Assembly: GCA_942492995.1 (NCBI GenBank)
Contig: OW818653.1
Coordinates: forward strand, 510,001-542,000
Direction: 5' to 3'
DNA from: an uncultured Erysipelotrichaceae bacterium
GTDB lineage: Bacteria; Bacillota_I; Bacilli_A; Erysipelotrichales; Erysipelotrichaceae
DNA length: 32,000 nucleotides
The translations under genes and the position numbers were made by a program. Shown here one piece after another: positions 5,047 to 31,892 of this stretch. Each line of letters opens with the position of its first letter. Positions within the stretch are counted from its first letter, which is position 1. Below the pieces are notes generated by a model. That model had not been told where the DNA came from. It saw only the letters and a program-made list of their open reading frames with translations, and did no database searches.

Positions 5047-5679
5047 ATGGAACTATATACTGAGTTCTATTCAGCGTTTGAGAAACTTGAACAAGAGAAA
5101 TGCATAAAATTGGCGCATGATGCATTAAAAAACGGGGATATTGATGTATATGATTTGTATGAATCTGTATTACGTAAATCATTAGCGAATCTGACAGACA
5201 TTGAAACGGATTTAAATCATAAGATATGGAAAGAACATATTCAATCTGGAATTGTTCGTACTATCATTGAACAAGCAAATCCATATGTATTGAGTAAACG
5301 TAACAATACTTTATTATTAAAAGCCGCAGTTATTTGTCCTGATGGTGAACAACATGAATTAGGTGCACGAATGGTAAGTGATTATATCCGAATGATGGGA
5401 TATGAGACTTTTTTTGTGGGAAGAGATACACCGAGAGATGAAATACATGATCTTATCGAAACACTTAAACTAGATGTAGTTGCGATAAGCGTTACAAATT
5501 ACTACAACTTATCAAAAGCATTACAAATGGTTCAAGATATAAAACAGAATTTTCCAACAATAAAATTAATCGTTGGAGGTAGAGGATTAGATGTCAATTC
5601 TGAAGCGTTTCATGAGATTGGCGTTGATGTGACACGAAGTTTTGAAGACATTCAACGTGTTTTGGGGACTAATCTATGA
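5047..5679 (+). CDS. Stand-alone cobalamin (B12)-binding domain protein (helical cap + Rossmann B12-binding domain), no DNA-binding or catalytic domain
   Basis: RBS AAGGAG. Exact canonical B12 motif spacing: E101-x-H103-x-x-G106, 41 residues, S148-V-T150, 26 residues, G177-G178 (classical DxHxxG-41-SxL-26/28-GG). The preceding ~90 aa helical region matches the B12-binding_2 cap position. The stop overlaps the next ATG (ATGA at 5676-5679). Confidence 0.85.
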   Translation: MELYTEFYSAFEKLEQEKCIKLAHDALKNGDIDVYDLYESVLRKSLANLTDIETDLNHKIWKEHIQSGIVRTIIEQANPYVLSKRNNTLLLKAAVICPDGEQHELGARMVSDYIRMMGYETFFVGRDTPRDEIHDLIETLKLDVVAISVTNYYNLSKALQMVQDIKQNFPTIKLIVGGRGLDVNSEAFHEIGVDVTRSFEDIQRVLGTNL

Positions 5680-6809
5680 AATTAGCGTTTTCGATCGCAA
5701 AGCGATTCATTGGTTACAACAAAGGTCAAACAATAATGATTATGGTTGGTATAGCAATTGGAGTCTCTGTACAAATATTTATCGGATTATTGATTACAGG
5801 ACTACAAGAAAGTTTAATTGATAAGACTGTAGGCAGCACACCACATATCACAATCACACAAGAAGAGGATTTAAACTTCGGTGATTTCGAAGTAAAAAAC
5901 GATTCTTATACAGCGGTTGTTTATCAAGCTGATGGACCAGCATTTGCCATTAGCGATAATGATGATGCGTCTGTTTTATTAAGAGGGTTAAGTTCTGAAG
6001 GGGATAAGATTTACAAATTAAACGAAAAGCTTATTGAAGGGAAACTTCCATCCAATAAAAATGATGTCATTATTGGTTCGGGTTTAGTAGAAAAATTAAA
6101 CGTAAAATTAAATGATACTCTTACACTTAGAACAATCAATAATCAAACGGTTGATGTACGAATTGTAGGAATTGTGGATCTAAAGGTAGATGCGATAAAC
6201 AATACGTGGATACTATCTACTCTACCAACAGCGCAAAGTCTATTCGAGTATGACGATAAGATAACATCAATAGCGATACAAGTAAAAGATGTATTCGAAG
6301 CAGATGTATTAGCTGAAGCGATAAAAGATGAAATTACAGTTAGCGATTTAAATGTTGTGAACTGGAAAGAACAAAATGATGATTTATTGAGTGGATTAAA
6401 TGGTCAAAGTATCTCGAGCATTATGATTCAAGTGTTTGTATTAGTTTCAGTAGTATTAGGTATAGCAAGTGTATTAGCAATTACAGTACTACAAAAATCT
6501 AAACAAATAGGTATCTTAAAAGCAATGGGGATTCCAGATAATACAGCGAGCTGGATATTCTTATTTCAAGGTTTAATTCTAGGATTCTATGGAGCTATCT
6601 TAGGTGTATTGTTTGGATTGGGATTAATTATTTCGTTTACAACATTTGCTAGAAATCCTGATGGGACAGCATTAATCGCAATTAGATATGATATTCCATT
6701 CATTCTATTTTCTGGATCAATCGCTATATTCTCAGCATTAATCGCATCATTTATACCGGCTGCACGTTCTAAGAAACTAAGCCCAATTGAGGTCATTCGC
6801 AATGGATAA
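5676..6809 (+). CDS. ABC transporter permease, FtsX/MacB fold, LolC/E-like (377 aa)
   Basis: N-terminal TM (IMIMVGIAIGVSVQIFIGLLI), ~210-aa extracytoplasmic domain beginning GSTPHITI (LolC/E-like), then three C-terminal TMs (FtsX domain). Confidence 0.88.
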   Translation: MKLAFSIAKRFIGYNKGQTIMIMVGIAIGVSVQIFIGLLITGLQESLIDKTVGSTPHITITQEEDLNFGDFEVKNDSYTAVVYQADGPAFAISDNDDASVLLRGLSSEGDKIYKLNEKLIEGKLPSNKNDVIIGSGLVEKLNVKLNDTLTLRTINNQTVDVRIVGIVDLKVDAINNTWILSTLPTAQSLFEYDDKITSIAIQVKDVFEADVLAEAIKDEITVSDLNVVNWKEQNDDLLSGLNGQSISSIMIQVFVLVSVVLGIASVLAITVLQKSKQIGILKAMGIPDNTASWIFLFQGLILGFYGAILGVLFGLGLIISFTTFARNPDGTALIAIRYDIPFILFSGSIAIFSALIASFIPAARSKKLSPIEVIRNG

Positions 6810-7497
6810 TATTGTTCAACTTAAGAATATTACAAAAGTTTATGGAGATAAGATTAAGACCCAAGTTCTATTTGGTTTGAATCTTGAGTTTGAAAAAGGT
6901 AGTTTTAATTCGATTATCGGACAATCTGGAAGTGGCAAAAGTACATTATTGAATATCTTGGGTACGTTAGATGTTCCGACTGATGGTGAGATAATTATAA
7001 ATGGTGTAAATACGAAATCGATGAATCGTAACCAGTTAGCGAAATTAAGAAATGAATCATTAGGGTTTATATTCCAATTTCATTACTTATTACCTGAATT
7101 TACCGCATTGGAGAATGTTTTGATGCCGTATCGAATATTGGGTAAGAAAATCGATGAGAGTGTACTAGAGCGCGCAAATGAATTGATTGATTTAGTTGGT
7201 TTGACAAAAGTCAAAAACAATCTTGCGACGCAAATGTCTGGTGGTCAACAACAACGTACCGCCATTGCTCGATCACTCATGAATAATCCAAGTATAATTC
7301 TAGCGGATGAACCAACAGGTAATCTTGATTCAGATACAACAGCGCAAATTTATGATTTAATGCGTACCATAAATAAGAAATATAATACAACGTTTATTAT
7401 AATTACACATGATCAACATGTAGCAGAGCGCACAGATCGTATCATTGAAATTAAAGATGGAAGGATATTATTGGATATTAGAAAGAATAATGATTGA
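6802..7497 (+). CDS. ABC transporter ATP-binding protein, LolD/MacB-NBD-like
   Basis: ATG 6802 overlaps the permease stop (ATGGATAA), RBS GAGGT 6788-6792. Walker A GQSGSGKST, signature MSGGQQQR, Walker B IILADEPT, H-loop ITHD. Confidence 0.92.
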   Translation: MDNIVQLKNITKVYGDKIKTQVLFGLNLEFEKGSFNSIIGQSGSGKSTLLNILGTLDVPTDGEIIINGVNTKSMNRNQLAKLRNESLGFIFQFHYLLPEFTALENVLMPYRILGKKIDESVLERANELIDLVGLTKVKNNLATQMSGGQQQRTAIARSLMNNPSIILADEPTGNLDSDTTAQIYDLMRTINKKYNTTFIIITHDQHVAERTDRIIEIKDGRILLDIRKNND

Positions 7498-11167: not shown

Positions 11168-11176
11168 ATTAAACTA

Positions 11177-11206
11177 ATATCTTCCGATTTGGAAGATATT
11201 TTTTTA
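11177..11206 (+). terminator. Rho-independent terminator of the fru operon
   Basis: ATATCTTCC-GATTT-GGAAGATAT perfect 9-10 bp stem followed by TTTTTT. Confidence 0.85.
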
Positions 11207-11207
11207 T

Positions 11208-11241
11208 CTTAATCTAGACTTAATCTAAACTGTGATAAGAT
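11208..11241 (+). promoter_or_regulatory. Direct repeat CTTAATCTA x2 (11-bp register) plus extended -10 TGATAAGAT: candidate activator-dependent promoter of the ABC-PASTA operon
   Basis: CTTAATCTA at 11208-11216 and 11219-11227. TG (11233-34)-A-TAAGAT (11236-41). No good -35 hexamer at 17-nt spacing. Confidence 0.4.
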
Positions 11242-11272
11242 AAAAACGTAATAAATCATAAGGAGGAGTAGT

Positions 11273-12703
11273 ATGAACTTTTTAAAACGTGCATTTCTAA
11301 GTTTAGTTCGAAGAAAAGGTAAATCTTTAATTCTTTTAATCATTATCTTTATTCTAAGTAATGTTATGGCTGGTTCTATCGCAATCGGTCAAGCATCTAA
11401 GAATGTCGAAAAGACGATTAAACTACAATTAGGGGCTAACGCAACCGTTGAACTTGATTGGGAAAAGATGCAAGACTGGAATGAGGATCAATGGAATGCA
11501 TTAGAATATATCACACCAGAAACAGCTGACCAAATTGGTAATTTGTCCTATGTTAAATATTATGATTATAGTTCGGAAACGTATATCAGTTCTTCAACTA
11601 TTACACAATATGATCCAAACATGGTTGAAGTACCTACAGTTAGTTATTTCCCTATAAAAGGTGTTCAATATGCACCAATTTTGGATATTGTGAATGGAAA
11701 TGCGAGCTTAACACAAGGTCGTACATTTAACGATACTGAGATTGCGAATGGTGATTATGTTGGGCTTATTTCTGATAAACTAGCTGAACAAAATAATATA
11801 TTTGTTGGTGATATTGTCTATTTAGTGAATTCATTTCAAATATATAATCCTGATGGAACATTTGAAGAAATTAAACGTGATATCGCGATTGAAGTAATTG
11901 GGATATTTACACCTAAGGTTGAACAATCCACCGAAAACAATGGTGGATGGATTGACTATACTCCATTCAACCGTATTTATGTACCTAATGGAGTCGTTCA
12001 TGCGGAAACTCGTTGGTTAAACGAACAATACGCAATCGCGTATCCTGATTCTAATGTAAGAGTAGATCAAATCTACATTACACCAACATTCGTTTTGAAT
12101 AATCCAGAAGATGTAGAAAGCTTTAGAACTGAAGCTAAGAGCTTATTACCTGATTACTATAAAGTAACAGTATCAAGTGATGCGTATGATTCAGTAGCTG
12201 GTCCGATTAAGTTTATTGGATCATTATCGAACATTATTCTATATGTTGCGATTGGCGCAACAATCCTTATCTTAAGTTTAGTTGTTATATTATTCTTAAG
12301 AGATCGTAAACATGAATTAGGTATCTACTTAGCACTTGGTGAAAAGAAATCTAAAGTTGTTGGTCAAATTCTAATTGAAGTAGTTTCGATTGCTTTAATT
12401 GCGATAACATTATCCTTATTAACCGGTAATTCAATTGCGGAATCTACATCACAATCGATGATTGATTTAAGAAATGAAATCACTGGTAATACTGGTACAG
12501 ATGGTGGCGTTATTTATAAAGATATGGGCTATTATCCTGGCACTGGCGTTACTGAAGATGATGTTATGGAAGCTTACAAAATTCAATTCTCATGGGATTA
12601 TGTTATTATCCTTTATGGAGTAGGGCTTGGAACTGTATTACTTTCAAGTATCGCGCCAATGATTTATATCTTAAGATTAAAACCAAAGAAAATAATGATG
12701 TAA
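11273..12703 (+). CDS. ABC transporter permease, FtsX/MacB fold with large extracytoplasmic domain (476 aa)
   Basis: RBS AAGGAGG. N-terminal TM (SLILLIIIFILSNVMAGSIAI), ~290-aa extracytoplasmic domain, three C-terminal TMs with a ~55-aa insert before the last TM. Single permease gene, implying a homodimer. Confidence 0.88.
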   Translation: MNFLKRAFLSLVRRKGKSLILLIIIFILSNVMAGSIAIGQASKNVEKTIKLQLGANATVELDWEKMQDWNEDQWNALEYITPETADQIGNLSYVKYYDYSSETYISSSTITQYDPNMVEVPTVSYFPIKGVQYAPILDIVNGNASLTQGRTFNDTEIANGDYVGLISDKLAEQNNIFVGDIVYLVNSFQIYNPDGTFEEIKRDIAIEVIGIFTPKVEQSTENNGGWIDYTPFNRIYVPNGVVHAETRWLNEQYAIAYPDSNVRVDQIYITPTFVLNNPEDVESFRTEAKSLLPDYYKVTVSSDAYDSVAGPIKFIGSLSNIILYVAIGATILILSLVVILFLRDRKHELGIYLALGEKKSKVVGQILIEVVSIALIAITLSLLTGNSIAESTSQSMIDLRNEITGNTGTDGGVIYKDMGYYPGTGVTEDDVMEAYKIQFSWDYVIILYGVGLGTVLLSSIAPMIYILRLKPKKIMM

Positions 12704-12713
12704 GAGGTGAACT

Positions 12714-13388
12714 ATGGCAATCCTAAAAGCAAATAATTTAAAGTATTATTATCAAGATGGTGAGAATATAAGAACCATTCTAAAAGATTTAAGTATTGAA
12801 TTTGAAAAAGGTAAATTTTATACGATCTTAGGTCCATCAGGAAGTGGTAAAACAACATTATTATCGTTGTTAGCTGCGTTGGATGAACCTAAAGAAGGTG
12901 TAATTTTGTATAATGATAAAGATATTAAAACCATTGGTTATGAAAAGTATCGTAGAAATATGGTAAGTATCGTATTCCAAAGTTATAACTTAGTACCTTA
13001 TATGACTGCGGTTGAGAACGTAATGATTCCAATGGCGATTACTGAAAATGATATACCTAAGAATTCAAAAGAAGTCGCATATAATTTATTAGATTATATT
13101 GGAATTACTAAAACTAAAGCAGATCGTATTGTAAATAAACTATCAGGTGGTGAGCAACAACGTGTTGCGATTGCTCGATCTCTTGCTAGTAATGTAGATG
13201 TTATCTTTGCGGATGAACCTACTGGTAATTTAGATTCTGAACTTGAAGAAGAGATCATTGGAATCTTTAGAATGCTAGCACATGAACATGGTAAATGTAT
13301 TATTATGGTTACTCACTCCAAAGAAATCGCGGATAAATCCGATGTATCTTACCATTTAAGAAAAGGAGTATTATTACAAAATGAGTGA
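12714..13388 (+). CDS. ABC transporter ATP-binding protein (MacB/FtsE-like NBD)
   Basis: RBS AGAGGTG. Walker [10 protein letters not shown], signature LSGGEQQR, Walker [10 protein letters not shown]-loop VTHS. Confidence 0.92.
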
Positions 13389-14775
13389 TTTTTTGAATAA
13401 ATTTTCTAAACAAGATTACAAAGACGATCAAAAGAAAAAAGCGGAAGAAGTTGTTAAACCAGCTTCTACACCTGAACCAACTCAAACTGTAGTTAGTACT
13501 CCGATTGAGTCAATAAAAACAGTTGAGAAAGTGGAAACTAAAACAATTGAACAAACAGTCAAACATAAACCAAGAGGTTCTCATCAAGAACCTGAAGAAG
13601 TTCACATTGATCCAAGTTATCGTCGTAATCAACGGAATAAATTAATTGGTGGCGTTGTTGCTGTAGTGTTATTAATTGCGATTTCGTTTGGTGCGTATTA
13701 TTTATTGAATCAAGTTCAAGTTCCAGATTATATCAATAAACCTTTCTCAGAACTCAAGACTTGGGCTTCAAGAAATAATGTTGTATTAGAAACTGAGTAC
13801 GCATTCTCATTGGAAGTTTCGCAGGATTATGTCATTGAAATGAATCCACTCGCAAATTCTAACGTTCAAAAAGGTTCGATTATGCGCGTTATCGTAAGTA
13901 GTGGTGCTGATCCAGATGAGCTTATACAAGTTCCTGATTTCACAGGCAACTCATATGGACAAATACAAGATTGGTTAAATTCCAATAAAATAAATAACTT
14001 ACGTATTACATATGAAAACAATGAAGACATTCCTGTCAATGAATATGTAAAGATTGTATTCAATGATAAAACTGTAACGAGTGACAATTATACGCGAAAA
14101 GACTATGGATTAATTTATATCTCAAATGGTCCAATTGTATATGAAAAGAATATCGAAGTACCTGATTGGTCTACGACTAACGCGAATGTTGGAGTTGTGG
14201 AAGCATGGGGCCTTCAAAATGATGTAAGTATCATTGTAAAACTTGTTAATTCATCAACTGTTGCGATGAATGGTGTAATTAACCAAAGTGTTGCGCCTAA
14301 AACAATGGTTTCGAAGAAATCATCGATTACAATTTCTGTATCATTAGGTCAAGTTGTAGTTGTGCCTGATTTCTCTAAGATATCTAAAGAAGAAGCCGCA
14401 TCTGTAACACTTAATAATGCGATTGTTAAATATGTAGAAATGTATCAACCTGCAACTGGCGCTAAGTATGGTAATTATATTTGGCAAGATGTTAAGGCGG
14501 GCACAAATGTAAATCAAAGTAGTACGACTAAGTTAGTTATTACTGTTTATTATTCATTAGGTAGACCGTATTTAAATAGTCTATCTGGACAAAAAGAATC
14601 TGTAATACCTGATATTATTTATAATTTTAACAAGGATACAGCTAATTTTACCTACACAATAAATTATGTAAACAGTAGTGAAGAAAAGGGTAATATCGTA
14701 TCCATGTCGCCTACTAATCAATACGTTGATCCAGGTCAACATATTGTGTTTGAAGTTTCAAACGGAACACCTTGA
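13381..14775 (+). CDS. Single-pass membrane protein with five tandem PASTA-like domains; no kinase or transpeptidase domain
   Basis: ATG 13381 overlaps the ATPase stop (ATGAGTGA), RBS AAAGGAG 13363-69. It has a K/E/T/P-rich ~86-aa N-terminus and a TM at aa 87-109. Five ~65-70-aa repeats follow, each opening VPD[YFW] (or IPD) and closing in a V/I-S-x-G strand (IVSSG, YISNG, SVSLG, YYSLG, EVSNG). Confidence 0.85.
   Translation: MSDFLNKFSKQDYKDDQKKKAEEVVKPASTPEPTQTVVSTPIESIKTVEKVETKTIEQTVKHKPRGSHQEPEEVHIDPSYRRNQRNKLIGGVVAVVLLIAISFGAYYLLNQVQVPDYINKPFSELKTWASRNNVVLETEYAFSLEVSQDYVIEMNPLANSNVQKGSIMRVIVSSGADPDELIQVPDFTGNSYGQIQDWLNSNKINNLRITYENNEDIPVNEYVKIVFNDKTVTSDNYTRKDYGLIYISNGPIVYEKNIEVPDWSTTNANVGVVEAWGLQNDVSIIVKLVNSSTVAMNGVINQSVAPKTMVSKKSSITISVSLGQVVVVPDFSKISKEEAASVTLNNAIVKYVEMYQPATGAKYGNYIWQDVKAGTNVNQSSTTKLVITVYYSLGRPYLNSLSGQKESVIPDIIYNFNKDTANFTYTINYVNSSEEKGNIVSMSPTNQYVDPGQHIVFEVSNGTP
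13714..14766 (+). repeat. Protein-level tandem repeat: five PASTA-like modules (aa ~112-175, 182-250, 258-323, 326-394, 397-462)
   Basis: Recurrent pattern: VPD-x-x-(G/N/S)-x(3-6)-amphipathic helix, then beta strands ending hydrophobic-x-(V/I)S-x-G. Repeats are diverged at the DNA level, with no nucleotide repeat. Confidence 0.7.
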
Positions 14776-14796
14776 TTTAATTCAAGGTGTTTTTTA
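14767..14796 (+). terminator. Rho-independent terminator of the ABC-PASTA operon
   Basis: ACACCTTGA-TTTAAT-TCAAGGTGT perfect 9-bp stem (includes the stop codon) followed by TTTTT. Confidence 0.85.
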
Positions 14797-21024: not shown

Positions 21025-22494
21025 TTAATGTTCGTGATGTCTATGAACGTTGATATCACTGAAATCATACAGTTCTAATGTTTTCTTAATCGAACGTGTA
21101 ATATCAGGTGCGTTTTCTTTATCAACTTTAACTTTAACTTTTATTGAGTTATCGATTACGGCTGGACCATTTGCACATCCACCCTTACAAGACATACCTT
21201 CACAGATATTAGCAGGATAACGACCAGCTTTAATAATCATCATGGCCTTCTTACATTCATGAATTCCATCTGCGTATTGAGCAGTAAACGGCATATTATC
21301 ATCTTCTTTAAATGCTTGAACAAGTGCTTTTGAAACACCACCACCAAACGCAAAGTTACGTGCAAATATACTTGCTTCAACATTTTTTTCAACGACGAGT
21401 TCTGATAAGTAAATATGTTGCGATACGAGCATTGCGGCGATTTCTTCATAGGTTAAGACATAATCAACTTCATGACCATCCATACCTTCTTGTTTCTTCG
21501 CAACACATGGACCAATGAATACAACTGAATAGTCTGGATAACGTTTTTTAATATAACGTGCCATCGCAACCATTGGAGAAACCATCGTAGACATATTCTT
21601 TTCATAGACTTGAGGGAAATGTTGACGAGCTAGATTAACAAATGCTGGGCAACATGATGTCGTCATAGTTGTATTTTCAGCCATTTTTTCTTTAAGTTCA
21701 TCTTTTTCATACCAAGCTACAATATCAGCCCCAACCGCAACTTCTACAACTTCCGCAAAACCAAGTTTTTTAATTCCAACTTTAATTTGATCGAGTGTTG
21801 CACTATCGAATTGTCCTTGAATGGATGGCGCTATCATCGCAACAGTAGGCTTACCTTGCTTAATACCATCAATGACATTAACAATCCATGATTGATCTTC
21901 AATCGCTCCAAATGGACATGCGGATTGACATGCGGCACAATTAATACATTTTTCTTCATTAATCTGCGCAATATTATGTGCATCTAATGTAATCGCATCG
22001 ACAGCACAGGATGCTTTACAAGGTCTTGGTGTATCGATTATCGCATTGAATGGACATGCTTTAACACATGCACCACATTCAACACATTTTTCATGATCAA
22101 TTACTGCACGATTTGAACCCATTGAAATGGCATCAAACTTACATGCACTACGACAACTCTTTGCCATACATTTACGACAGTTATCAGTAATTTGGATTCT
22201 TTCAATTGTACAACCATCGCATGCGGCTTCTAATACTTTAACAATTTGTTTTGGCTTAATTTCTGAGTTTAATTTTGGGGTAGGGTTTTTGCCCATAGCG
22301 ACACGTACACGTTGACGAATTATTTCACGTTCTTTATACACGCAGCATCTAAATTCCGCATGATTATGTGGAATTAATTTATACGCTAATTCATCATCAA
22401 ATTTATCTGTTAATGTTCCATCAAATGCTTTAATAGATACTTCTCTTAATACATCAAATTTAAACTGTCTAGCTTCATGATCGAATAGTCCCAT
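21025..22494 (-). CDS. [FeFe]-hydrogenase-like protein with N-terminal ferredoxin-type clusters (489 aa)
   Basis: H-cluster signatures TSCCPAF (L1), GPCVAKKQE (L2) and EGMSCKGGCANGP (L3). Two classical CxxCxxCxxxCP motifs (CVECGACVKACP, CINCAACQSACP) plus extra Cys clusters upstream. RBS AAGGGG. Confidence 0.85.
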   Translation of the reverse strand: MGLFDHEARQFKFDVLREVSIKAFDGTLTDKFDDELAYKLIPHNHAEFRCCVYKEREIIRQRVRVAMGKNPTPKLNSEIKPKQIVKVLEAACDGCTIERIQITDNCRKCMAKSCRSACKFDAISMGSNRAVIDHEKCVECGACVKACPFNAIIDTPRPCKASCAVDAITLDAHNIAQINEEKCINCAACQSACPFGAIEDQSWIVNVIDGIKQGKPTVAMIAPSIQGQFDSATLDQIKVGIKKLGFAEVVEVAVGADIVAWYEKDELKEKMAENTTMTTSCCPAFVNLARQHFPQVYEKNMSTMVSPMVAMARYIKKRYPDYSVVFIGPCVAKKQEGMDGHEVDYVLTYEEIAAMLVSQHIYLSELVVEKNVEASIFARNFAFGGGVSKALVQAFKEDDNMPFTAQYADGIHECKKAMMIIKAGRYPANICEGMSCKGGCANGPAVIDNSIKVKVKVDKENAPDITRSIKKTLELYDFSDINVHRHHEH

Positions 22495-23827: not shown

Positions 23828-24247
23828 ATGGATATCAAAGCATTAGAGAAAATCTTTGAACTTTTTAATCGAAGTCAAGCGACGGAGTTCGAATTAGAAA
23901 CAGAAGAATTCAAAGTTAAATTAAAAAGAGAGTATGAGTTTAACCATCAAGTCGTTAAAGAAGTTAAGATTGCTCAACCTGTAGCGGAAGTTAGTGTTAA
24001 TTCTGGCTTATGGGTTAAAGCACCTTTAGTAGGAACATTCTATTTAAAATCGAATCCTGATGCGAAGCCATATATTGAAGTTGGTCAAAGTGTTATGAAG
24101 GGTCAGGTTCTGTGTTTAATCGAAGCAATGAAAGTTATGAACGAGATAAAAGCGGATCGTAACGGTGTTGTTAGAGAAATAAAGGCGATAAACGGGAAAA
24201 TGGTTGAATTCAATCAAGACATTGTTTTGATTGAGGAAGAGGTATGA
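23828..24247 (+). CDS. accB: Biotin carboxyl carrier protein of acetyl-CoA carboxylase
   Basis: Biotinyl-Lys motif LIEAMKVMNEI. Size and N-terminal segment are typical of AccB. Confidence 0.92.
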   Translation: MDIKALEKIFELFNRSQATEFELETEEFKVKLKREYEFNHQVVKEVKIAQPVAEVSVNSGLWVKAPLVGTFYLKSNPDAKPYIEVGQSVMKGQVLCLIEAMKVMNEIKADRNGVVREIKAINGKMVEFNQDIVLIEEEV

Positions 24248-25611
24248 TTCAAAAGTGTTTAATTGCGAATCGTGGTGAAATCGCTGTAAGAATTATTCGT
24301 GCGTGTAAAGACATGGGTATTAAGACAGTTGCGATTTATTCTACGGCTGATAAAAATGCATTACATGTTCAACTTGCGGATGAATCCGTTTGTGTAGGTG
24401 AACCAAATAGTAAAGATAGTTATTTAAACATTAATAATATTCTTTCTGCAGCACTTGCACTTAATGTGGATGCTATTCATCCTGGGTTTGGATTTCTTGC
24501 AGAAAATGCATCATTTGCGCGATTAGTTACAGCATGTGGGCTTATATTTGTAGGACCAAATGCGAATGTTATTGATCTTATGGGAAATAAGATTAACGCA
24601 AGAAATACGATGTTTAATGCAGGCGTTCCGATTATTCCAGGTTCACTTGAACCGATTCCGAATATTGATGAAGGATTGAAACAAGCACAAGCGATTGGAT
24701 ATCCTATTATCTTAAAAGCTGCGGCAGGTGGCGGTGGTAAGGGAATACGTATGATTGAAGATGATGAGTCTTTCTTACGTGCGTATAATGTATTACGTCA
24801 AGAAGCGAAGAATTATTTTAATGATGATTCGCTGTATATGGAAAAATTATTCGTTAACGCTAAACATATTGAAGTTCAGATTGTGGCGGATCAATTTGGT
24901 AATGTGATTCATCTCTATGAAAGAGATTGTTCATTTCAAAGAAGACATCAAAAGATGATTGAAGAAGCACCGTGTCATGGTTTAAGTCATGAAATACGTA
25001 ATTCGATCTGTCAAGCTGCTGTTACAGCTGCGAAAGCAGTTAAATATGACAGTGTTGGGACAATTGAGTTTTTAATGGATGAAGAGTCAAAATTCTATTT
25101 CATGGAAATGAATACAAGAATACAGGTAGAACATCCTGTGACTGAAATGATTACAGGGATTGATATAGTTAAGCATATGATTCGATCTTCAGATAAACAG
25201 AAATTATCGATTAAACAAAAAGATGTAAAAATAACTGGTCATGCGATTGAATGTCGTATTATCGCAGAAGATTATCGAAATGACTTTAAACCTTCTGTTG
25301 GTAAAATTACTTTTTATCATGCACCAGGCGGTAAAGATGTACGGATCGATAGTGCTCTATATAGCGGATATGAGATTCCACCGTTCTATGATTCGATGAT
25401 GGCAAAGCTTATTACAACCGGTAGTACGCGACTAAATGCGATCAAACGAATGCGTTCAGCTTTAGAAGAATTTATCGTAGAAGGGGTTGAGAATAACTTA
25501 GAGTTTTGTTACTTAACGATGTTTAATTCAAACTTTGTGACAGGACGCTATACAACTCAATTTGCCAATGATTGGATAAAGGAGCTAAACGAACGTGAAC
25601 CAGCACTTTGA
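24244..25611 (+). CDS. accC: Biotin carboxylase subunit of acetyl-CoA carboxylase
   Basis: ATGA overlap with accB. IANRGEIAVRIIRAC, GGGGKGIR and EMNTRIQVEHPVTE are ATP-grasp motifs. Confidence 0.95.
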   Translation: MIQKCLIANRGEIAVRIIRACKDMGIKTVAIYSTADKNALHVQLADESVCVGEPNSKDSYLNINNILSAALALNVDAIHPGFGFLAENASFARLVTACGLIFVGPNANVIDLMGNKINARNTMFNAGVPIIPGSLEPIPNIDEGLKQAQAIGYPIILKAAAGGGGKGIRMIEDDESFLRAYNVLRQEAKNYFNDDSLYMEKLFVNAKHIEVQIVADQFGNVIHLYERDCSFQRRHQKMIEEAPCHGLSHEIRNSICQAAVTAAKAVKYDSVGTIEFLMDEESKFYFMEMNTRIQVEHPVTEMITGIDIVKHMIRSSDKQKLSIKQKDVKITGHAIECRIIAEDYRNDFKPSVGKITFYHAPGGKDVRIDSALYSGYEIPPFYDSMMAKLITTGSTRLNAIKRMRSALEEFIVEGVENNLEFCYLTMFNSNFVTGRYTTQFANDWIKELNEREPAL

Positions 25612-26464
25612 TAAACGAAGAGAACGTTTGAATTTATTTCAAGCCATATTCTCGAAACCAAAAACAATAAAAATTAGTGAAAAAGAATTGGATTTTGTTG
25701 TTTGTCCAAAATGTAATAAAGCAATTGAAACAAATGAGATAAAGAAACACTTATCTGTATGTCCGCAATGTGACTATCATTTTCCATTGTCTGCGTATCA
25801 ACGTGTAGAGACAGTATTTGATCCATCTAGTTTTTATGAAGTTTATGCCAATGCGACAAGTACAGGATTAAATAGTTTTCCTGATTATTTAAATAAACTT
25901 ACGCGTTATCAAAAAGATACGAATCTTAATGAAGCAGTAGTCGTTGGGACCGCAAAAGTAAATGATATTAAAGTAGCGATAGCGATTATGGATTCACGTT
26001 TCATGATGGGAAGTATGGGACAAATCGTAGGCGAGAAAATTACACGCATTATTGAACTTGCGACACGTAGAAAATATCCATTAATAATATTCACCGCTTC
26101 AGGTGGTGCACGTATGCAAGAAGGAATAATTTCTTTGATGCAGATGGCTAAGACGAGTGCAGCACTAGAGCGTTTTAATCAAGCTGGTGGTTTCTACTTA
26201 ACAGTTTTAACACATCCTACTACGGGTGGTGTTAGCGCTAGTTTCGCTATGTTAGGGGATATTATCCTAGCTGAACCGCAAGCATTGATTGGATTCGCGG
26301 GAAGACGTGTTATCGAAAAAACGGTTAAGGAACAATTACCAGATGATTTTCAAACATCCGAATTCTTACATAAAAAAGGGTTTATCGATCAAATCGTTCA
26401 TCGCAGAGATTTGCGAGTTAAAATAGCTCAATGTTTAATGTTTCACCAGGAGATTAAAGTATGA
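25595..26464 (+). CDS. accD: Acetyl-CoA carboxylase carboxyltransferase beta subunit
   Basis: GTG start 25595 with AAGGAG (25579-84), overlapping the accC end. Zn ribbon CPKC...CPQC, and SGGARMQEG. Confidence 0.92.
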   Translation: MNQHFDKRRERLNLFQAIFSKPKTIKISEKELDFVVCPKCNKAIETNEIKKHLSVCPQCDYHFPLSAYQRVETVFDPSSFYEVYANATSTGLNSFPDYLNKLTRYQKDTNLNEAVVVGTAKVNDIKVAIAIMDSRFMMGSMGQIVGEKITRIIELATRRKYPLIIFTASGGARMQEGIISLMQMAKTSAALERFNQAGGFYLTVLTHPTTGGVSASFAMLGDIILAEPQALIGFAGRRVIEKTVKEQLPDDFQTSEFLHKKGFIDQIVHRRDLRVKIAQCLMFHQEIKV

Positions 26465-27261
26465 ATAAAATAAGCGCATGGGATCGTGTTACAACAGCTC
26501 GTAAACAAAATAGACCTAAATCTTTGGATATCATTCCATTGCTTTTCGATCACTTTTTTGAGTGTTCCGGTGATCGCCATTTCGGTGATGATCGTGCACT
26601 TGTGGGTGGTATCGCTATGTTTGAAGGTCAAGCTGTAACGGTTTTAGCGCAATCTAAAGGTCGTACGTTAGAAGAAAATATGAATTGTAACTTTGGGATG
26701 TTACATCCAGAAGGATATCGTAAAGCTTTACGTTTAGCTCAACAAGCTGAGAAATTCAAACGACCAATCATAACAATTGTAGATACAGCGGGTGCATATC
26801 CTGGTCAAATGGCTGAGGAACGTGGACAAGCTGAAGCGATTGCGAAAAGTCTACAGTTCTTTTCACAAATTAAAACACCTGTAATTACCATCGTTCTATC
26901 TGAAGGTGGTAGTGGTGGTGCACTTGCTTTAAGTGTTGCGGATCGTATCTATATGTTTGAAAATGCGATCTATTCAATACTCTCACCAGAGGGATTTGCG
27001 AGTATTTTATGGAAAGATGAATCACGTGTTAAAGAAGCAGCTGAGTTGATGGAATGTACAGCAGATGATTTGTTTGATAAACAAATTGTAGATTGGATTG
27101 TTCCAGAAGCTGAAGAAGGGTTTGAGCATAATATAAGTTATAGTATTTCGTTTATTAAAGATAAAATACGTACTGATTTATTGAAATTAAACAAATTAAA
27201 ATTAAATCATTTACTCGATCAGAGATATGAGAAGTTTAGAAAGATTGGTTCTAAACTATGA
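26461..27261 (+). CDS. accA: Acetyl-CoA carboxylase carboxyltransferase alpha subunit (short, 266 aa)
   Basis: ATGA overlap with accD, RBS GGAG. DTAGAYPG, AEERGQAEAIA and GGSGGALAL motifs. Confidence 0.92.
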   Translation: MNKISAWDRVTTARKQNRPKSLDIIPLLFDHFFECSGDRHFGDDRALVGGIAMFEGQAVTVLAQSKGRTLEENMNCNFGMLHPEGYRKALRLAQQAEKFKRPIITIVDTAGAYPGQMAEERGQAEAIAKSLQFFSQIKTPVITIVLSEGGSGGALALSVADRIYMFENAIYSILSPEGFASILWKDESRVKEAAELMECTADDLFDKQIVDWIVPEAEEGFEHNISYSISFIKDKIRTDLLKLNKLKLNHLLDQRYEKFRKIGSKL

Positions 27262-28235
27262 GTGTAACGGTTGAAATAAAAGGTTATGGCTATTGTAAAG
27301 CAGATAAATGTGTAACAAATACAGATTTAATGAAAATTGTAGATACATCAGATGAATGGATTAAAGAAAGAACAGGCATCGAACAACGTTATTTTAGTAC
27401 GATGGATAATACATCAGATTTAGGTGTAAAAGCAGCGAATATGGCAATCTTAGATGCTTCAATTAATCCAAAAGAGATTGATTTAATTATTGTAGCTACG
27501 ATTACTCCAGATGCGATGATGCCATCGACTGCTAATCTTATACAGGCAAAACTTGGATTGAATAATCAAAAATGTTTAGCCTTTGATGTTAATGCGGCTT
27601 GTAGTGGATTTCTAATCGCATTACAGAATGCGCAGGCAATGATTCAAAGTGGATTTGCGAAAAATGCACTTGTGATTGGATCTGAAACATTGAGTAAGAT
27701 TCTCGATTTTAATGATCGTACAACGTGTATTTTATTTGGTGATGGAGCTGGTGCTGTGGTGTTAGGTCAATCAACTAAACAATCAGTTATGAGCCATTAT
27801 AGTCGTAGTGTTGGTGATTTAGATGAAGTACTAACAACAGATGGATTGAAACTAAATACAGACTATATACGTGATGTTAAACAATCAATATTCCTACATA
27901 TGAAAGGTCAAGCTGTCTTTAGATTCGCGGTTAAAGCGATGGAAGATGCGATTCATGAACTTTGTAAACAAGAAAATCTTGAACTTAATGAAATTGATTG
28001 GATTGTTCCACATCAAGCAAATAGTCGAATCATACATCATGTTGCGTCAAAACTTAATATAAATGTTGAAAAATTCTATCTTAATTTAAATGAATATGGA
28101 AATACATCATCCGCTAGTATTCCTATCGCATTAGCGAATATGAAAGAAAAGGGATTCCTTAAAAAGGACCAAAAGATTATCTTAGTTGGATTTGGGGCAG
28201 GATTAACCTGGGCTAGCAGCTACTTTATCAGCTGA
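27258..28235 (+). CDS. fabH: 3-oxoacyl-ACP synthase III
   Basis: Catalytic Cys in NAACSGF, His in VPHQAN, Asn in YGNTSSAS, and C-terminal GFGAGLTW. Confidence 0.93.
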   Translation: MSVTVEIKGYGYCKADKCVTNTDLMKIVDTSDEWIKERTGIEQRYFSTMDNTSDLGVKAANMAILDASINPKEIDLIIVATITPDAMMPSTANLIQAKLGLNNQKCLAFDVNAACSGFLIALQNAQAMIQSGFAKNALVIGSETLSKILDFNDRTTCILFGDGAGAVVLGQSTKQSVMSHYSRSVGDLDEVLTTDGLKLNTDYIRDVKQSIFLHMKGQAVFRFAVKAMEDAIHELCKQENLELNEIDWIVPHQANSRIIHHVASKLNINVEKFYLNLNEYGNTSSASIPIALANMKEKGFLKKDQKIILVGFGAGLTWASSYFIS

Positions 28236-28246
28236 AGGAGAAAATT

Positions 28247-29191
28247 ATGTTAAATCAAATATTACAAATTAAATATCCGATTATTCAAGGTGCTATGGCG
28301 AATATTGCGACCGCAAAATTCGCAGCTGCTGTTTCTAATAGTGGCGCATTAGGTGTAATTGGGACTGGCGCAATGAATGCGGATCAAGCACGTGCTGCGA
28401 TTTTAGAATGTCGTTCATTAACAGATAAACCGTTCGCAGTAAATGTTATGTTAATGAATCCAAATAGTGATGCGATTATGGAAGTTATATGCGAACTTAA
28501 ACCGCGTGTTGTGACGACTGGTGCAGGTAATCCAGGAAAATATATTGAAAAATTAAAACAAAATGGGATATTTGTTGCGCCAATTGTACCAACAGTTGCT
28601 TTAGCGATTCGTATGGAACAAGCAGGGGCTGATTTCATTATTGTTGAAGGTACAGAAGCTGGAGGACATGTTGGAGAATTAACGACAATGGTACTTGTAC
28701 CTCAAGTAGTTGATGCGGTTAAACTTCCAGTCATTGCGGCAGGTGGTATTGCGGATGGTAGAGGGTATGTTGCCGCATTAGCGTTAGGCGCAATTGGTGT
28801 TCAAGTCGGAACATGTCTATTGGTTGCGGATGAATGTCCAATCCATGATAACTATAAGACTGCAGTTATCAATGCACGTGATACTGATACAGTTGTGACT
28901 GGTAGAAGTGTTTCTGCTCCTGTTCGCATCAAAAAGAATCGTATGAGTCAGAATTATTTAAAACTTGAAAAAGAAGGAGCAGATCGTGAGGAGTTAGAAA
29001 AATTAACCCTTGGATCACTACGTAAAGCTGTATTTGATGGAGATATCGAAAATGGTTCACTAATGATGGGTCAAATCGCTGGAATGATCAAAGAGACGAA
29101 ACCACTAAGTGAAATATTTGAAAATATGGTTCAAGACGCACAAAAACATAATCTAAAACTTCAGTCAAAACTTGGAGTAAATAATGGGTAA
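28247..29191 (+). CDS. fabK: Enoyl-ACP reductase II (FMN-dependent, NMO/TIM-barrel family)
   Basis: Colinear with S. pneumoniae FabK as I recall it: YPIIQGAMA, DKPFAVNVML, VVTTGAGNP, EGTEAGGHVGELTTM, VIAAGGIADGRG, QVGT, MMGQIAG. Confidence 0.9.
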   Translation: MLNQILQIKYPIIQGAMANIATAKFAAAVSNSGALGVIGTGAMNADQARAAILECRSLTDKPFAVNVMLMNPNSDAIMEVICELKPRVVTTGAGNPGKYIEKLKQNGIFVAPIVPTVALAIRMEQAGADFIIVEGTEAGGHVGELTTMVLVPQVVDAVKLPVIAAGGIADGRGYVAALALGAIGVQVGTCLLVADECPIHDNYKTAVINARDTDTVVTGRSVSAPVRIKKNRMSQNYLKLEKEGADREELEKLTLGSLRKAVFDGDIENGSLMMGQIAGMIKETKPLSEIFENMVQDAQKHNLKLQSKLGVNNG

Positions 29192-30245
29192 AATACAAAT
29201 TCGTAATAAAACACTAAACTTACCATTAATTCAAGGTGGTATGGGAATTGGTGTTTCATTAGGAAATTTAGCAGGACATGTGATGAAAGAAGGTGGCTTA
29301 GGTGTCATCTCTGCAGCACAACCTGGATATCGTGAACCAGATTTTAAACAAAATACGATAGAGGCTAATTTAAGAGCACTACGTCAAGAAATCTCAAAAG
29401 CTCGCGAAATTTCGAAGGGTAATGGATTGTTGGGTGTAAATATTATGGTTGCGGCTGAACACTATGATATTTATACGAAGGCAATCTCTGAAATGGATAT
29501 TGATGTCATTATTAGTGGTGCAGGTTTACCGTTAGAATTGCCAACATTATCCGTAAATTCAGATATCGCATTAGCACCGATTGTTTCAAGTGCTAAAGCG
29601 ATGGTATTGCTTGTTAAACGATGGATTAGTCGAGCGAATCGTTTACCTGATCTTGTCATCATTGAAGGTCCTTTAGCAGGTGGTCATTTAGGTTTTTCTT
29701 GGGATCAATTGAACAATAATACATTTCCAACATTAGAAAGTATCTTAAGTGATGTCTTACAAGCATTAAAAGATAATAACTGGGAATTTCCAATCTTTGT
29801 TGCAGGTGGAATCTATACACGTGAAGATATAGAAAAATTTATAGAACTTGGCGCAACAGGTGTTCAAATGGCTACGCGGTTTATCACGACATACGAGTGC
29901 GATGCGGATTTGAAATATAAAGAATATTTCATTCAAGCTAAGGAATCTGATATTCGTTATGTGATTAGTCCATCAGGATATCCTGGTCGTGCAATTGATA
30001 ATGAATTAGTTACTAAATTAATGAATGCAGAAAAAGTTAAAGTAAGACATTGTTATAACTGTTTAAAACCATGTAATCCAGCCACAACACCTTATTGTAT
30101 TACTGAAGCGCTTATTCAAGCAGTTAAAGGTAATATAAGTGAAGGGTTAGTGTTTACAGGTACAAATGGATATCGAAATAAGTCGATTATACATGTATCA
30201 GAATTAATCGACGAATTATTCCCAAATAAGGAGATATATCGATGA
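29184..30245 (+). CDS. Second nitronate-monooxygenase/FabK-like flavoprotein paralog (353 aa) with C-terminal four-Cys cluster
   Basis: LPLIQGGMGIGVS, IIEGPLAGGHLG, VAGGIYT and GVQMATRF indicate the NMO/FabK TIM-barrel fold. It is clearly diverged from the upstream FabK. There is a unique CYNCLKPCNPATTPYC (C-x2-C-x3-C-x7-C) insert. The start overlaps the fabK stop, and the stop overlaps the fabD start. Confidence 0.8.
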   Translation: MGKIQIRNKTLNLPLIQGGMGIGVSLGNLAGHVMKEGGLGVISAAQPGYREPDFKQNTIEANLRALRQEISKAREISKGNGLLGVNIMVAAEHYDIYTKAISEMDIDVIISGAGLPLELPTLSVNSDIALAPIVSSAKAMVLLVKRWISRANRLPDLVIIEGPLAGGHLGFSWDQLNNNTFPTLESILSDVLQALKDNNWEFPIFVAGGIYTREDIEKFIELGATGVQMATRFITTYECDADLKYKEYFIQAKESDIRYVISPSGYPGRAIDNELVTKLMNAEKVKVRHCYNCLKPCNPATTPYCITEALIQAVKGNISEGLVFTGTNGYRNKSIIHVSELIDELFPNKEIYR

Positions 30246-31162
30246 AAATAGGATTTCTATTTGTTGGTCAAGGATCACAAACAGTAGGGATGGGACTTGA
30301 TGTTTATACAAATTATCAAAGTTCGAAAGATTTATTTGATTCAGTAAAATTAGATTTTGATGTAAAAGATGTTTGTTTTAATGGACCAAAAGAAGTACTG
30401 GATCAAACATACTATACACAACCAAGTTTACTCATCACTTCACTTGCGATAGCGAATGCTTTAAATGAAGAAGGTATTCGTGCAGATGTTGTGGCTGGTT
30501 TGAGCTTAGGTGAATACAGTGCACTTTGTTATGCGAATGGCTTGGATGTAAATCAAGCGATTAAGTTAGTTTCTAAACGTGCTGAAATTATGAGCAATGC
30601 ATTACCATTAAACGTAAGTGGAATGGTAGCCGTACTAAGCGATAGAATTGATTTAATAAAAGAAGTTGTAAATCAAGTTCGAAGCGAAGGGGTTGGTTTA
30701 GTTGAAATTGCAAATTATAATAGTCCTTCACAAACGGTTATTAGTGGTGAAAATAAAGCATTAGAAATATCAGTTAATCGTTTAAAAGAGTTGAAAATTC
30801 GTTGTATTCCGTTAGCTGTTAGTGGTGCGTTTCATACCTCATTATTAAATGAGGCAAGTATGCAATTATCGAAAGAACTCGAAAATTATACATTTATTCA
30901 ACTAAGTTGTTCGATGTTATTTAATATTAGTGGAATAGAAGAATTAGATGTAAAACAAGCACTCACAAACCAGATTTGTTCATCAGTACAATGGGTTAAA
31001 ACGATTGAGAGAATGAATGAATTAGGCGTTGATTGTTTTATCGAAATAGGACCAAAGAATAGTTTACAGAAATTAGTCAAACAAATAGTACCAGAAGCGC
31101 GAGTATTCTCGGTTGATTCGAAAGAGAGTATTAAGCAACTCATAGGAGAACTCAATGGATAA
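30242..31162 (+). CDS. fabD: Malonyl-CoA:ACP transacylase
   Basis: FVGQGSQ and active-site GLSLGEYSA; AFHT motif. Confidence 0.93.
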   Translation: MKIGFLFVGQGSQTVGMGLDVYTNYQSSKDLFDSVKLDFDVKDVCFNGPKEVLDQTYYTQPSLLITSLAIANALNEEGIRADVVAGLSLGEYSALCYANGLDVNQAIKLVSKRAEIMSNALPLNVSGMVAVLSDRIDLIKEVVNQVRSEGVGLVEIANYNSPSQTVISGENKALEISVNRLKELKIRCIPLAVSGAFHTSLLNEASMQLSKELENYTFIQLSCSMLFNISGIEELDVKQALTNQICSSVQWVKTIERMNELGVDCFIEIGPKNSLQKLVKQIVPEARVFSVDSKESIKQLIGELNG

Positions 31163-31892
31163 ATTAGTATGTCTAGTGACAGGCGCATCAAGTGGAATTG
31201 GTCGTCAAATAGCACTTGATTTTGCGAAAGAGGGATATGATTTAGTCTTGAACTATAGCTCAAATGCGGTAAGTGCAATGGAAGTAGCGAAAGAATGTGA
31301 ATCGTTTGGAAGTAAAACACTTGTCCTTGGATTTGATGTATCAAAAGGGGATGAAGTAGAAAAGAATATTCAAACAGTAATTAGTACATTCGGAAAGATT
31401 GATGTATTAATTAATAATTCTGGAATTACACGAGATGGTTTAGTTCTTCGTATGAAGGAAAGTGATTTTGAGGATGTGATTGATATTAATCTTAAAGGTG
31501 CATTTAATTGTTCAAAAGCTGTTTTGAAGTATATGTTTAAAGCGCGTTCTGGGAAAATTATCAATATGACAAGTGTTATTGGTTTAATCGGTAATGCAGG
31601 ACAAGCGAATTATGCGGCATCTAAAGCTGGACTTATTGGTTTGACGAAGTCTTTGGCAAAAGAGTGTGCAACACGAAATATTAATGTTAATGCGATTGCG
31701 CCAGGGTTTATTCAAACACGTATGACGGATCAATTAAGCGATGATTTAAAACAATCTATCCTTAAACAGATACCAAATGGTCGATTTGGATCTTGTGAAG
31801 ATATCTCTAACTGTGCTCTATTTCTTGCGAGTAATAAAGCAAACTATATAAATGGACAAGTCATTCAAGTGGATGGCGGAATGGTGATGTAA
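31155..31892 (+). CDS. fabG: 3-oxoacyl-ACP reductase (SDR)
   Basis: TGASSGIG cofactor motif, NNSGIT, catalytic YAASKAG, and C-terminal GQVIQVDGGM. Confidence 0.93.
   Translation: MDKLVCLVTGASSGIGRQIALDFAKEGYDLVLNYSSNAVSAMEVAKECESFGSKTLVLGFDVSKGDEVEKNIQTVISTFGKIDVLINNSGITRDGLVLRMKESDFEDVIDINLKGAFNCSKAVLKYMFKARSGKIINMTSVIGLIGNAGQANYAASKAGLIGLTKSLAKECATRNINVNAIAPGFIQTRMTDQLSDDLKQSILKQIPNGRFGSCEDISNCALFLASNKANYINGQVIQVDGGMVM

Follow-up and report, generated by a model that had tools for sequence, protein, structure and literature searches.

We describe a three-gene unit on the forward strand of a 32,000-nucleotide stretch of DNA (the window; GC content about 33%) from an uncultured Erysipelotrichaceae bacterium (contig OW818653.1, positions 510,001 to 542,000). 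The unit encodes the permease and the ATPase of a type VII ATP-binding cassette (ABC) transporter and a membrane protein whose only recognizable domains are five PASTA modules. We found that this trio is real, widespread and apparently uncharacterized, and we hold with considerable confidence that its three proteins function together. With more reserve, and as the reading we prefer, we propose that the trio is a homodimeric ABC mechanotransducer of the MacB/LolC/HrtB-like kind, in which a kinase-less, single-pass PASTA protein serves as a dedicated targeting or regulatory third subunit.

The permease gene (11273..12703, 476 amino acids) is separated by a gap of 10 nucleotides from the ATPase gene (12714..13388, 224 amino acids). 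The gene for the PASTA protein (13381-14775, 464 amino acids) begins inside the end of the ATPase gene, its start codon overlapping the ATPase stop in the 8-nucleotide sequence ATGAGTGA (13381-13388), and a ribosome-binding site, AAAGGAG, lies 12 nucleotides upstream of this overlap. A preliminary description of this DNA, made from the sequence alone, had proposed the same three open reading frames (ORFs), including the ATG that overlaps the ATPase stop, and our coordinates match it exactly.

Pfam matched PASTA (PF03793) in five stretches of the third protein (83.1 bits, E=1.4e-23) and matched no other family; there was no Pkinase match and no match to a transpeptidase or penicillin-binding protein (PBP) dimer domain. 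An AlphaFold 2 (AF2) model built from a 69-sequence alignment, with a predicted local distance difference test score (pLDDT) of 84, shows five alpha/beta modules that follow a transmembrane (TM) helix at 79-109, with disorder at residues 14-74. These extracytoplasmic modules span residues ~111-175, 181-250, 256-323, 325-394 and 397-462 (13711..14772). When the model was compared with the PDB by Foldseek the top of the list held only PASTA structures, namely the Staphylococcus aureus PrkC/Stk1 ectodomain (3py9, E=4e-13), the PASTA region of Mycobacterium tuberculosis PknB, and PBP2x, and a search of the PDB by sequence returned the same kinases. Thus the profile match and the fold both identify the repeats as PASTA, and the earlier picture of a protein with one TM helix, five PASTA modules and nothing else holds.

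That description had likened the protein to a PknB/StkP-type kinase from which the kinase domain was removed. Consistent with this, the NCBIfam model for PASTA kinases (NF033483, PknB_PASTA_kin) scored 105.5 bits against a cut-off of 450 and aligned only over model positions 271-506. Among the 101 closest homologues (to E=4e-17) PASTA was the sole domain family, apart from one incidental extra match (P0054, PF05795). None of these 101 proteins has a kinase domain, and kinases appear only at E above 1e-9. Longer members of 620-890 amino acids have extra PASTA repeats only, with no catalytic domain and no fusion to a permease.

The head of the PASTA protein on the cytoplasmic side had been described as about 86 disordered residues. 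We found that disorder is indeed predicted for residues 14-74, but that the first 13 residues form a near-invariant motif, MSDFL[SN][KNQ]F....Y (13381..13419), in an alignment of 79 species; the first 8 nucleotides of its coding sequence are those that overlap the end of the ATPase gene. Residues 1-10 have a mean column identity of 0.81 across these species, more than any other block of 10 residues. The motif is followed by a low-complexity linker rich in Lys, Glu, Thr, Pro and also Ser (residues 14-71, 13420..13593; pLDDT below 50 over 14-74), and then by a conserved acidic/basic motif, EExxIDP[ST]YxK (residues 72-82; longer form EExEIDP[ST]YxKKKRR), and the single TM helix (~88-110 in the alignment, 79-109 in the model; motif and helix together 13594..13710). 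Up to the end of the TM helix the head measures 83-161 amino acids across species, the linker varying in both sequence and length.

An exhaustive profile search returned 989 cluster representatives at E <= 1e-30, and we examined the best 143 for the motif. The strict form was found in 62 of the 96 proteins of 650 amino acids or fewer, and a relaxed form, S/D-F-L-x-x-hydrophobic, stands at the N-terminus of many of the remaining PASTA-only relatives. The motif is lacking from the giant secreted multi-PASTA proteins (P0268, P0269, P0270, P0276, P0350, P0379 and others). These proteins of 1,400-3,300 amino acids have 8-30 PASTA-like stretches, and those with an untruncated N-terminus mostly have a signal-peptide-like start. 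The head is more than a linker. Because the peptide is short, invariant, cytoplasmic and encoded by a gene that is translationally coupled to that of a highly conserved ATPase, the simplest explanation is that it serves as a docking or regulatory element for the cytoplasmic face of the transporter.

The permease matched FtsX (PF02687, E=4e-10, 40.2 bits against a cut-off of 25.5) and, over residues 22-289, MacB_PCD (PF12704, E=2e-8, 35.3 bits against a cut-off of 27). Its AF2 model (pLDDT 79) has four long TM helices, with helices at 17-53 and 301-354, an ectodomain of Porter and Sabre parts at about residues 54-300, and an extended loop between TM3 and TM4 at 406-440 that is modelled with low confidence. 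The four-TM FtsX fold proposed earlier was therefore borne out, but the ectodomain is somewhat smaller than the ~290 residues first claimed, coming to about 250-280 in the model. Full-length Foldseek matches were LolE/LolC, MacB, Spr0695, YbbP, HrtB, YtrF and BceB (E=5e-14 to 1e-6), the best being LolE (9rld, E=5e-14), and the ectodomain alone matched the ectodomain structures of YknZ, MacB and LolC. These structural matches indicate that, as modelled, the permease is of the Porter and Sabre (MacB/LolC/HrtB) kind and not of the FtsX type. By sequence the permease is far from every solved member and similarity is marginal; the best PDB match of its sequence profile is a weak one to FtsX (8idb, E=1.6e-4).

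The ATPase, or nucleotide-binding domain (NBD), matched ABC_tran (E=5e-33), so that with five PASTA stretches, FtsX and MacB_PCD the whole set of Pfam families expected of the trio was recovered. Its Walker A, Q-loop, LSGGEQQR signature, Walker B (DEPT) and H-loop are intact, and the signature and Walker B were present in all 74 orthologues. The best NCBIfam matches (L_ocin_972_ABC, LolD, FtsE and DevA) all fell below their cut-offs, with 179.1 bits against 307.75 for LolD (TIGR02211) and 171.1 against 264.85 for FtsE (TIGR02673). At 182.8 bits against 254.85 for TIGR03608, an ABC exporter of a lactococcin 972-type bacteriocin was rejected as well. The nearest PDB sequences were MJ0796, LolD and YtrE (~1e-40) and YbbA (4e-38). 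With an FtsX fold, a Porter/Sabre ectodomain, an intact NBD and a PASTA array, the trio belongs to the type VII ABC superfamily and to the PASTA family.

A similar pair of genes stands next to the trio in one species. In Streptococcus henryi (locus L070, 9392-11576) an FtsX-type permease of 505 amino acids (23% identical) and an ATPase (50% identical) are encoded 0.9 kb downstream of the trio with no PASTA protein, and this is the nearest PASTA-less paralogue among the loci examined.

A species scan found a relative in 155 species. This figure is a lower bound, since the scan, which used an 8-sequence alignment and one genome per GTDB species, was pattern-limited. We retrieved 80 loci and found by tblastn with the window proteins that permease, ATPase and PASTA protein are encoded together in 77; in the other three the contig is cut at or just before the PASTA gene. 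ORF calling gave the order permease-ATPase-PASTA in 73 of the 80, and in 54 of these 73 the ATPase stop and the PASTA start overlap by exactly 8 nucleotides. The order in L055 is ATPase-permease-PASTA, and three further loci hold all three genes by tblastn; in these four the trio is either rearranged or interrupted by a single additional called ORF. The ABC pair is also kept in distant relatives with other numbers of PASTA modules (417, 669 and, in Vallitalea, 796 amino acids), with the order PASTA-permease-ATPase in one of them (L086). Synteny of the trio, on which the earlier description had made its case depend, is thus retained wherever the contig allows it to be seen, and it persists in the 417-796-residue members.

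The closest public matches to the window are MAGs of uncultured Erysipelotrichaceae. The hosts of the trio are Erysipelotrichaceae, many halophilic and alkaliphilic Bacillaceae, Enterococcus, Vagococcus, Granulicatella, Isobaculum, Streptococcus (henryi, porci and rupicaprae), Oscillospiraceae and Tissierellia. Two metagenome-assembled genomes (MAGs) labelled Actinomycetes and Coriobacteriales, with contigs of 54-57% GC, carry it too. The distribution is patchy and the genomic position of the trio varies; in Vagococcus and Enterococcus it lies in a housekeeping region between glyQS and dnaG-rpoD, and none of the 80 listed loci comes from Bacillus subtilis, S. aureus or Streptococcus pneumoniae. 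Pairwise identities of the three proteins correlate (r=0.87), and the ATPase, with a median of 0.72, is conserved far better than the permease (0.42) and the PASTA protein (0.40). When all ORFs of the 80 loci were clustered, which also covered the downstream neighbours, the next commonest gene cluster occurred in only 9 loci, so that no neighbour beyond the trio is conserved. A Pfam scan of 123 upstream neighbours found no recurrent regulator, PBP or hydrolase; these genes are functionally heterogeneous and nothing recurs beyond lineage-level synteny.

One locus marks the boundary of the family. L085 (574-4098) encodes two tandem PASTA-only membrane proteins of 595 and 548 amino acids that have neither the head motif nor ABC genes beside them, and the next gene encodes a MatE transporter. 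By sequence these are a different kind of kinase-less PASTA protein. We count the joint lack of motif and ABC genes in favour of the trio being one machine.

Plasmid carriage was found only on Enterococcus raffinosus megaplasmids, and the trio is not a typical mobile resistance cassette. One of these copies, on NZ_CP081847.1 (L087, 952693-963549), is disrupted beside an IS110 element: the degraded PASTA gene is annotated as two fragments, the response-regulator gene beside them is truncated, and IS110 transposase genes lie on both sides of the region. A known anti-phage system was rejected also, as PADLOC gave only generic ABC-ATPase matches and matches of the PASTA region to PD-T4-6 kinase models, and none for the permease.

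In type VII ABC systems the NBD cycle moves the stalk helices and the ectodomain instead of driving transport across the membrane. Members with Porter and Sabre work on molecules at or outside the outer leaflet, as when MacB expels its substrates from the periplasm, LolCDE and HrtBA extract lipoproteins and haem, respectively, and BceAB frees lipid II-cycle intermediates from antibiotics. Kinases and PBP2x use their PASTA arrays to engage lipid II, muropeptides or un-crosslinked peptidoglycan, and these arrays localise where synthesis takes place. By analogy, the trio would work by mechanotransmission, that is, by ATP-driven movement of its ectodomain without transport. The preliminary description had suggested that a PASTA array could be the partner or sensor of such an ATPase. 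The suggestion is strengthened because the coupling of the genes is conserved, the trio is inherited together across more than 150 species, no other neighbour is conserved and the N-terminal motif is conserved; it is still something that we infer.

In the model that we propose, the TM helix and the juxtamembrane motif of the PASTA protein would place it next to the permease dimer. The SDFLxxF peptide may touch the cytoplasmic side of the transporter, at the NBD or the coupling region, and would thereby take the place of the kinase domain of PknB/StkP-type proteins as the cytoplasmic output. On the outside the PASTA array would read un-crosslinked peptidoglycan, lipid II or muropeptides, and could in this way target and/or gate the ATP-driven movement of Porter and Sabre at the outer face of the membrane, at sites rich in cell-wall precursors. 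Its output would most likely be to protect or clear lipid-linked intermediates of the wall, or else compounds that are bound to such intermediates. That it specifically guards the cell against antimicrobials aimed at the wall is a tentative suggestion. Equally speculative is the idea of a third, kinase-independent PASTA output, in which occupancy by a ligand (lipid II, muropeptide or nascent glycan) is passed through the TM helix and SDFLxxF to the NBDs. The trio would then be a ligand-gated mechanotransducer for envelope defence, doing work only where precursors accumulate or are attacked.

Several points weigh against this reading. Scanned singly, PASTA modules 1 to 5 scored 35.9, 18.8, 22.6, 20.8 and 19.6 bits, so that only module 1 passes the Pfam cut-off of 23.2 and modules 2-5 lie just below it; with the fold of the model supporting the assignment, we take these four to be divergent PASTA modules. 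Fusion of PASTA to a permease or an ATPase was not seen among the proteins listed. No recurrent nearby regulator, PBP, hydrolase or antibiotic gene in the 80 loci points to an output, and regulation of the trio is lineage-specific. A profile of the head alone, from the motif to the TM helix, returned only two fragments from 5.8 billion proteins and missed even known members, so that it says nothing about the same head on other ectodomains. Finally, some PASTA domains, such as those of M. tuberculosis PonA2, do not bind muropeptides, and therefore binding of a ligand by the array cannot be assumed.

Among known systems the closest in architecture are the MacB-like pumps, MacB/MacAB-TolC, Spr0693-0695 of S. 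pneumoniae and YknXYZ of B. subtilis. Like the trio these have a four-TM FtsX-fold permease with a Porter and Sabre ectodomain between TM1 and TM2, long stalk helices, an NBD of the MacB type and a third gene for a single-pass extracytoplasmic partner. However, their partner is a membrane-fusion protein (HlyD/MacA) and that of the trio is a five-PASTA array, and the NBD of the trio is a separate polypeptide. We found no MacA/HlyD membrane-fusion protein as the third gene product or as a conserved neighbour, and so the trio is not a MacAB pump. BceAB-BceS is likewise an FtsX-domain ABC system of Bacillota, and BceB was a structural match to the permease. BceAB acts on lipid II-cycle intermediates in the outer leaflet and forms complexes with a membrane sensor. 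BceB, however, has 10 TM helices, an ectodomain between TM7 and TM8 and a two-component system as its partner, whereas the trio permease has four TM helices and a PASTA partner; there is no two-component system in the window and none recurs in the upstream flanks of related loci. LolCDE, HrtBA, YtrEF and YbbAP include the best structural matches to the permease and near NBD sequences, but none has a PASTA partner. The trio ATPase misses the LolD equivalog cut-off, and the known substrates of LolCDE and HrtBA, lipoproteins and haem, have no evident link to PASTA.

The strongest of the alternatives is that the trio works as FtsEX does, with the transporter moving the PASTA array and the array recruiting or activating a peptidoglycan hydrolase or synthase encoded elsewhere, on the pattern of FtsEX with PcsB, CwlO, EnvC or RipC and of StkP PASTA with LytB and PBP2x. 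The logic of FtsEX is that of our own proposal, since it is a type VII ATPase that moves an extracytoplasmic cell-wall partner without transport. The permease is of the same superfamily, its sequence profile has FtsX as its best (weak) PDB match, StkP-type arrays position cell-wall enzymes, and the housekeeping location in Vagococcus and Enterococcus would suit such a role. However, the FtsX ectodomain has no Sabre and the trio permease has a full MacB-type Porter and Sabre ectodomain, and the partners of FtsEX are coiled-coil hydrolases or activators, not a membrane-anchored PASTA array. The ATPase, at 171 bits, is under the FtsE equivalog cut-off, and a hydrolase, synthase or division gene is not conserved beside the trio. 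The patchy distribution, with B. subtilis, S. aureus and S. pneumoniae absent from the 80 listed loci, is a further point against it. We consider this alternative unlikely.

The PASTA protein might instead mainly modulate or act as a decoy for a canonical PASTA kinase, by forming heterodimers with the kinase ectodomain or through phosphorylation of its linker, while the ABC transporter has a separate job. PASTA kinases (PknB, PrkC, StkP, Stk1 and IreK) do share with the trio protein a single TM helix that lies between a low-complexity juxtamembrane linker and a linear PASTA array. Its ectodomain is nearest to those of Stk1/PrkC and PknB in both sequence and fold (3py9, 3m9g and 2kui), its linker is rich in Thr, Ser and Pro, and genera with the trio such as Enterococcus, Streptococcus and Bacillaceae also have IreK, StkP or PrkC; the window itself contains no canonical PASTA kinase gene. 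The trio protein differs from these kinases in having no kinase domain, in its 13-residue N-terminal motif and in the coupling of its gene to that of an ABC ATPase, just as it differs from PBP2x-class proteins in having no transpeptidase domain upstream of PASTA. Modulation of a kinase leaves the near-universal linkage, the 8-nucleotide overlap with the ATPase gene and the co-variation of the three proteins unexplained. Moreover, the conserved part of the head is the 13-residue motif and not the Thr-rich linker, which is conserved in neither sequence nor length. We therefore regard this explanation as improbable.

It is similarly improbable that the three genes are merely co-transcribed and encode independent proteins, or that the PASTA protein is a client extracted or turned over by the transporter, in the way that LolCDE, for one, extracts proteins anchored in the membrane, because independent functions rarely keep an identical 8-nucleotide overlap and gene order across Bacillota classes and into high-GC MAGs, at 26-40% PASTA identity and with no other neighbour, and because a client would not account for a conserved N-terminal motif on the cytoplasmic side.

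The trio is flanked by hairpins that resemble intrinsic terminators, as had been claimed. The first (11176..11200, an 11-bp stem followed by a T-run) belongs to the upstream gene for a phosphotransferase system (PTS) fructose IIBC protein and forms the 5' boundary of the unit; the second (14764..14793, a 12-bp stem followed by a T-run) overlaps the stop codon of the PASTA gene and forms the 3' boundary. In the terminator scan such hairpins occurred at 8 sites in the region against 2.0 expected. The flanking genes, fruK and PTS fructose IIBC upstream and an NAD(P)-binding protein and proA/proB downstream, are metabolic and unrelated to the trio.

The claim that the unit has a promoter region of its own held in part. 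A promoter scan found no consensus sigma-70 promoter in the 72-nucleotide leader (11200-11272), but a probable extended -10 element that the scan missed, TGaTAAGAT, can be read at 11233..11241, and the ribosome-binding site of the permease gene, AAGGAGG, at 11260..11266. The -10 element is kept with its TG in L001, L004 and L011 (as TGaTAGAAT in L004 and L011) and without TG, as ATGATAGAAT, in L005 and L007. Overlapping the -35 position is a tandem direct repeat, CTTAATC-N4-CTTAATC, with an 11-bp period (11208..11225). It is conserved in the close relatives L001, L004, L005, L007 and L011, whose proteins are 53-98% identical to those of the window and in which the adjoining terminator sequence has diverged; L003 has only a degenerate second copy. 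The arrangement at 11208-11241 looks like an activator-dependent promoter of the response-regulator type, in which the repeat is a candidate target of an activator of transcription, for instance a response regulator. There is no regulator gene in the window to pair with it. The repeat occurs once in the window, where 0.7 matches are expected by chance, and it is absent from the related loci compared outside the window's Erysipelotrichaceae clade; we therefore ruled it out as a regulatory signal of the whole family. Conservation of the extended -10 element is limited to that clade as well.

Other lineages have other upstream features. In L028, L033, L035, L038, L042, L045 and L047, all Oceanobacillus or Pseudogracilibacillus, an inverted repeat, ATCCAAG-N6-8-CTTGGAT, lies about 90-110 nucleotides upstream of the permease start and is probably a lineage-specific operator. 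In one metagenomic lineage (L083, 1167-2325; L084, 2739-3897) a sigma factor of the extracytoplasmic function (ECF) type (Sigma70_r2) and a 206-residue protein that matches no family, possibly an anti-sigma factor, are encoded directly before the trio on the same strand. This suggests envelope-stress control in that lineage. Because the distribution is patchy and the location variable, and because of the ECF sigma gene in one lineage and the tandem repeat at -35 in the window's clade, an accessory module for envelope stress or resistance is a better fit for the trio than a core division machine.

The window contains a second module of the MacB/FtsX type (5047-7497). A 210-residue cytoplasmic protein with a B12-binding domain (PF02310, E=7e-16) is encoded first, the stop codon of its gene overlapping the start of a 377-residue permease with MacB_PCD and FtsX domains, and an ABC ATPase of 236 residues follows. 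Coupling of a cobalamin-binding-domain protein to a type VII ABC pair is unusual, and the ATPase paralogue of this module occupies the same relative position in L001, L004, L005, L007 and L011. Elsewhere the window holds ordinary genes unrelated to the trio: a [FeFe]-hydrogenase-like gene (21025-22494, reverse strand) and a complete acc/fab fatty-acid cluster (23828-31892) with accB, accC, accD, accA, fabH, two NMO-type enoyl reductases, fabD and fabG.

In the databases the proteins of the trio go by generic names ('PASTA domain-containing protein', 'ABC transporter permease') or by a wrong one ('serine/threonine-protein kinase'). Full-text literature searches, which reach few papers in subscription journals, turned up no account in which a PASTA-only protein is paired with an ABC transporter. 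Thus neither source revealed an equivalent already characterized under another name, a possibility that the preliminary description had raised.

PASTA domains are understood through two classes of protein, PBP2x-type transpeptidases and PknB/StkP-type kinases, and there is still debate on how they sense the wall. For type VII ABC systems, understanding comes from a few partners, MacA, LolA, EnvC, PcsB, CwlO and BceS. Our data suggest that the trio adds a new class of partner to the type VII ABC mechanotransducers, and that its PASTA protein represents a third architectural class. A module that joins the two would open both to experiment in a new way: the read-out of its PASTA array would be ATPase activity, measurable in vitro, instead of phosphorylation, and its MacB-type machine has a partner that is predicted to bind cell-wall material. 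Its hosts include culturable and partly clinically relevant bacteria (Enterococcus casseliflavus, E. gallinarum, Vagococcus, Granulicatella, Streptococcus and Oceanobacillus), and therefore knock-outs and antibiotic susceptibility tests are feasible. If it is true that the trio protects lipid II-cycle intermediates, it would be an unrecognized determinant of intrinsic resistance.

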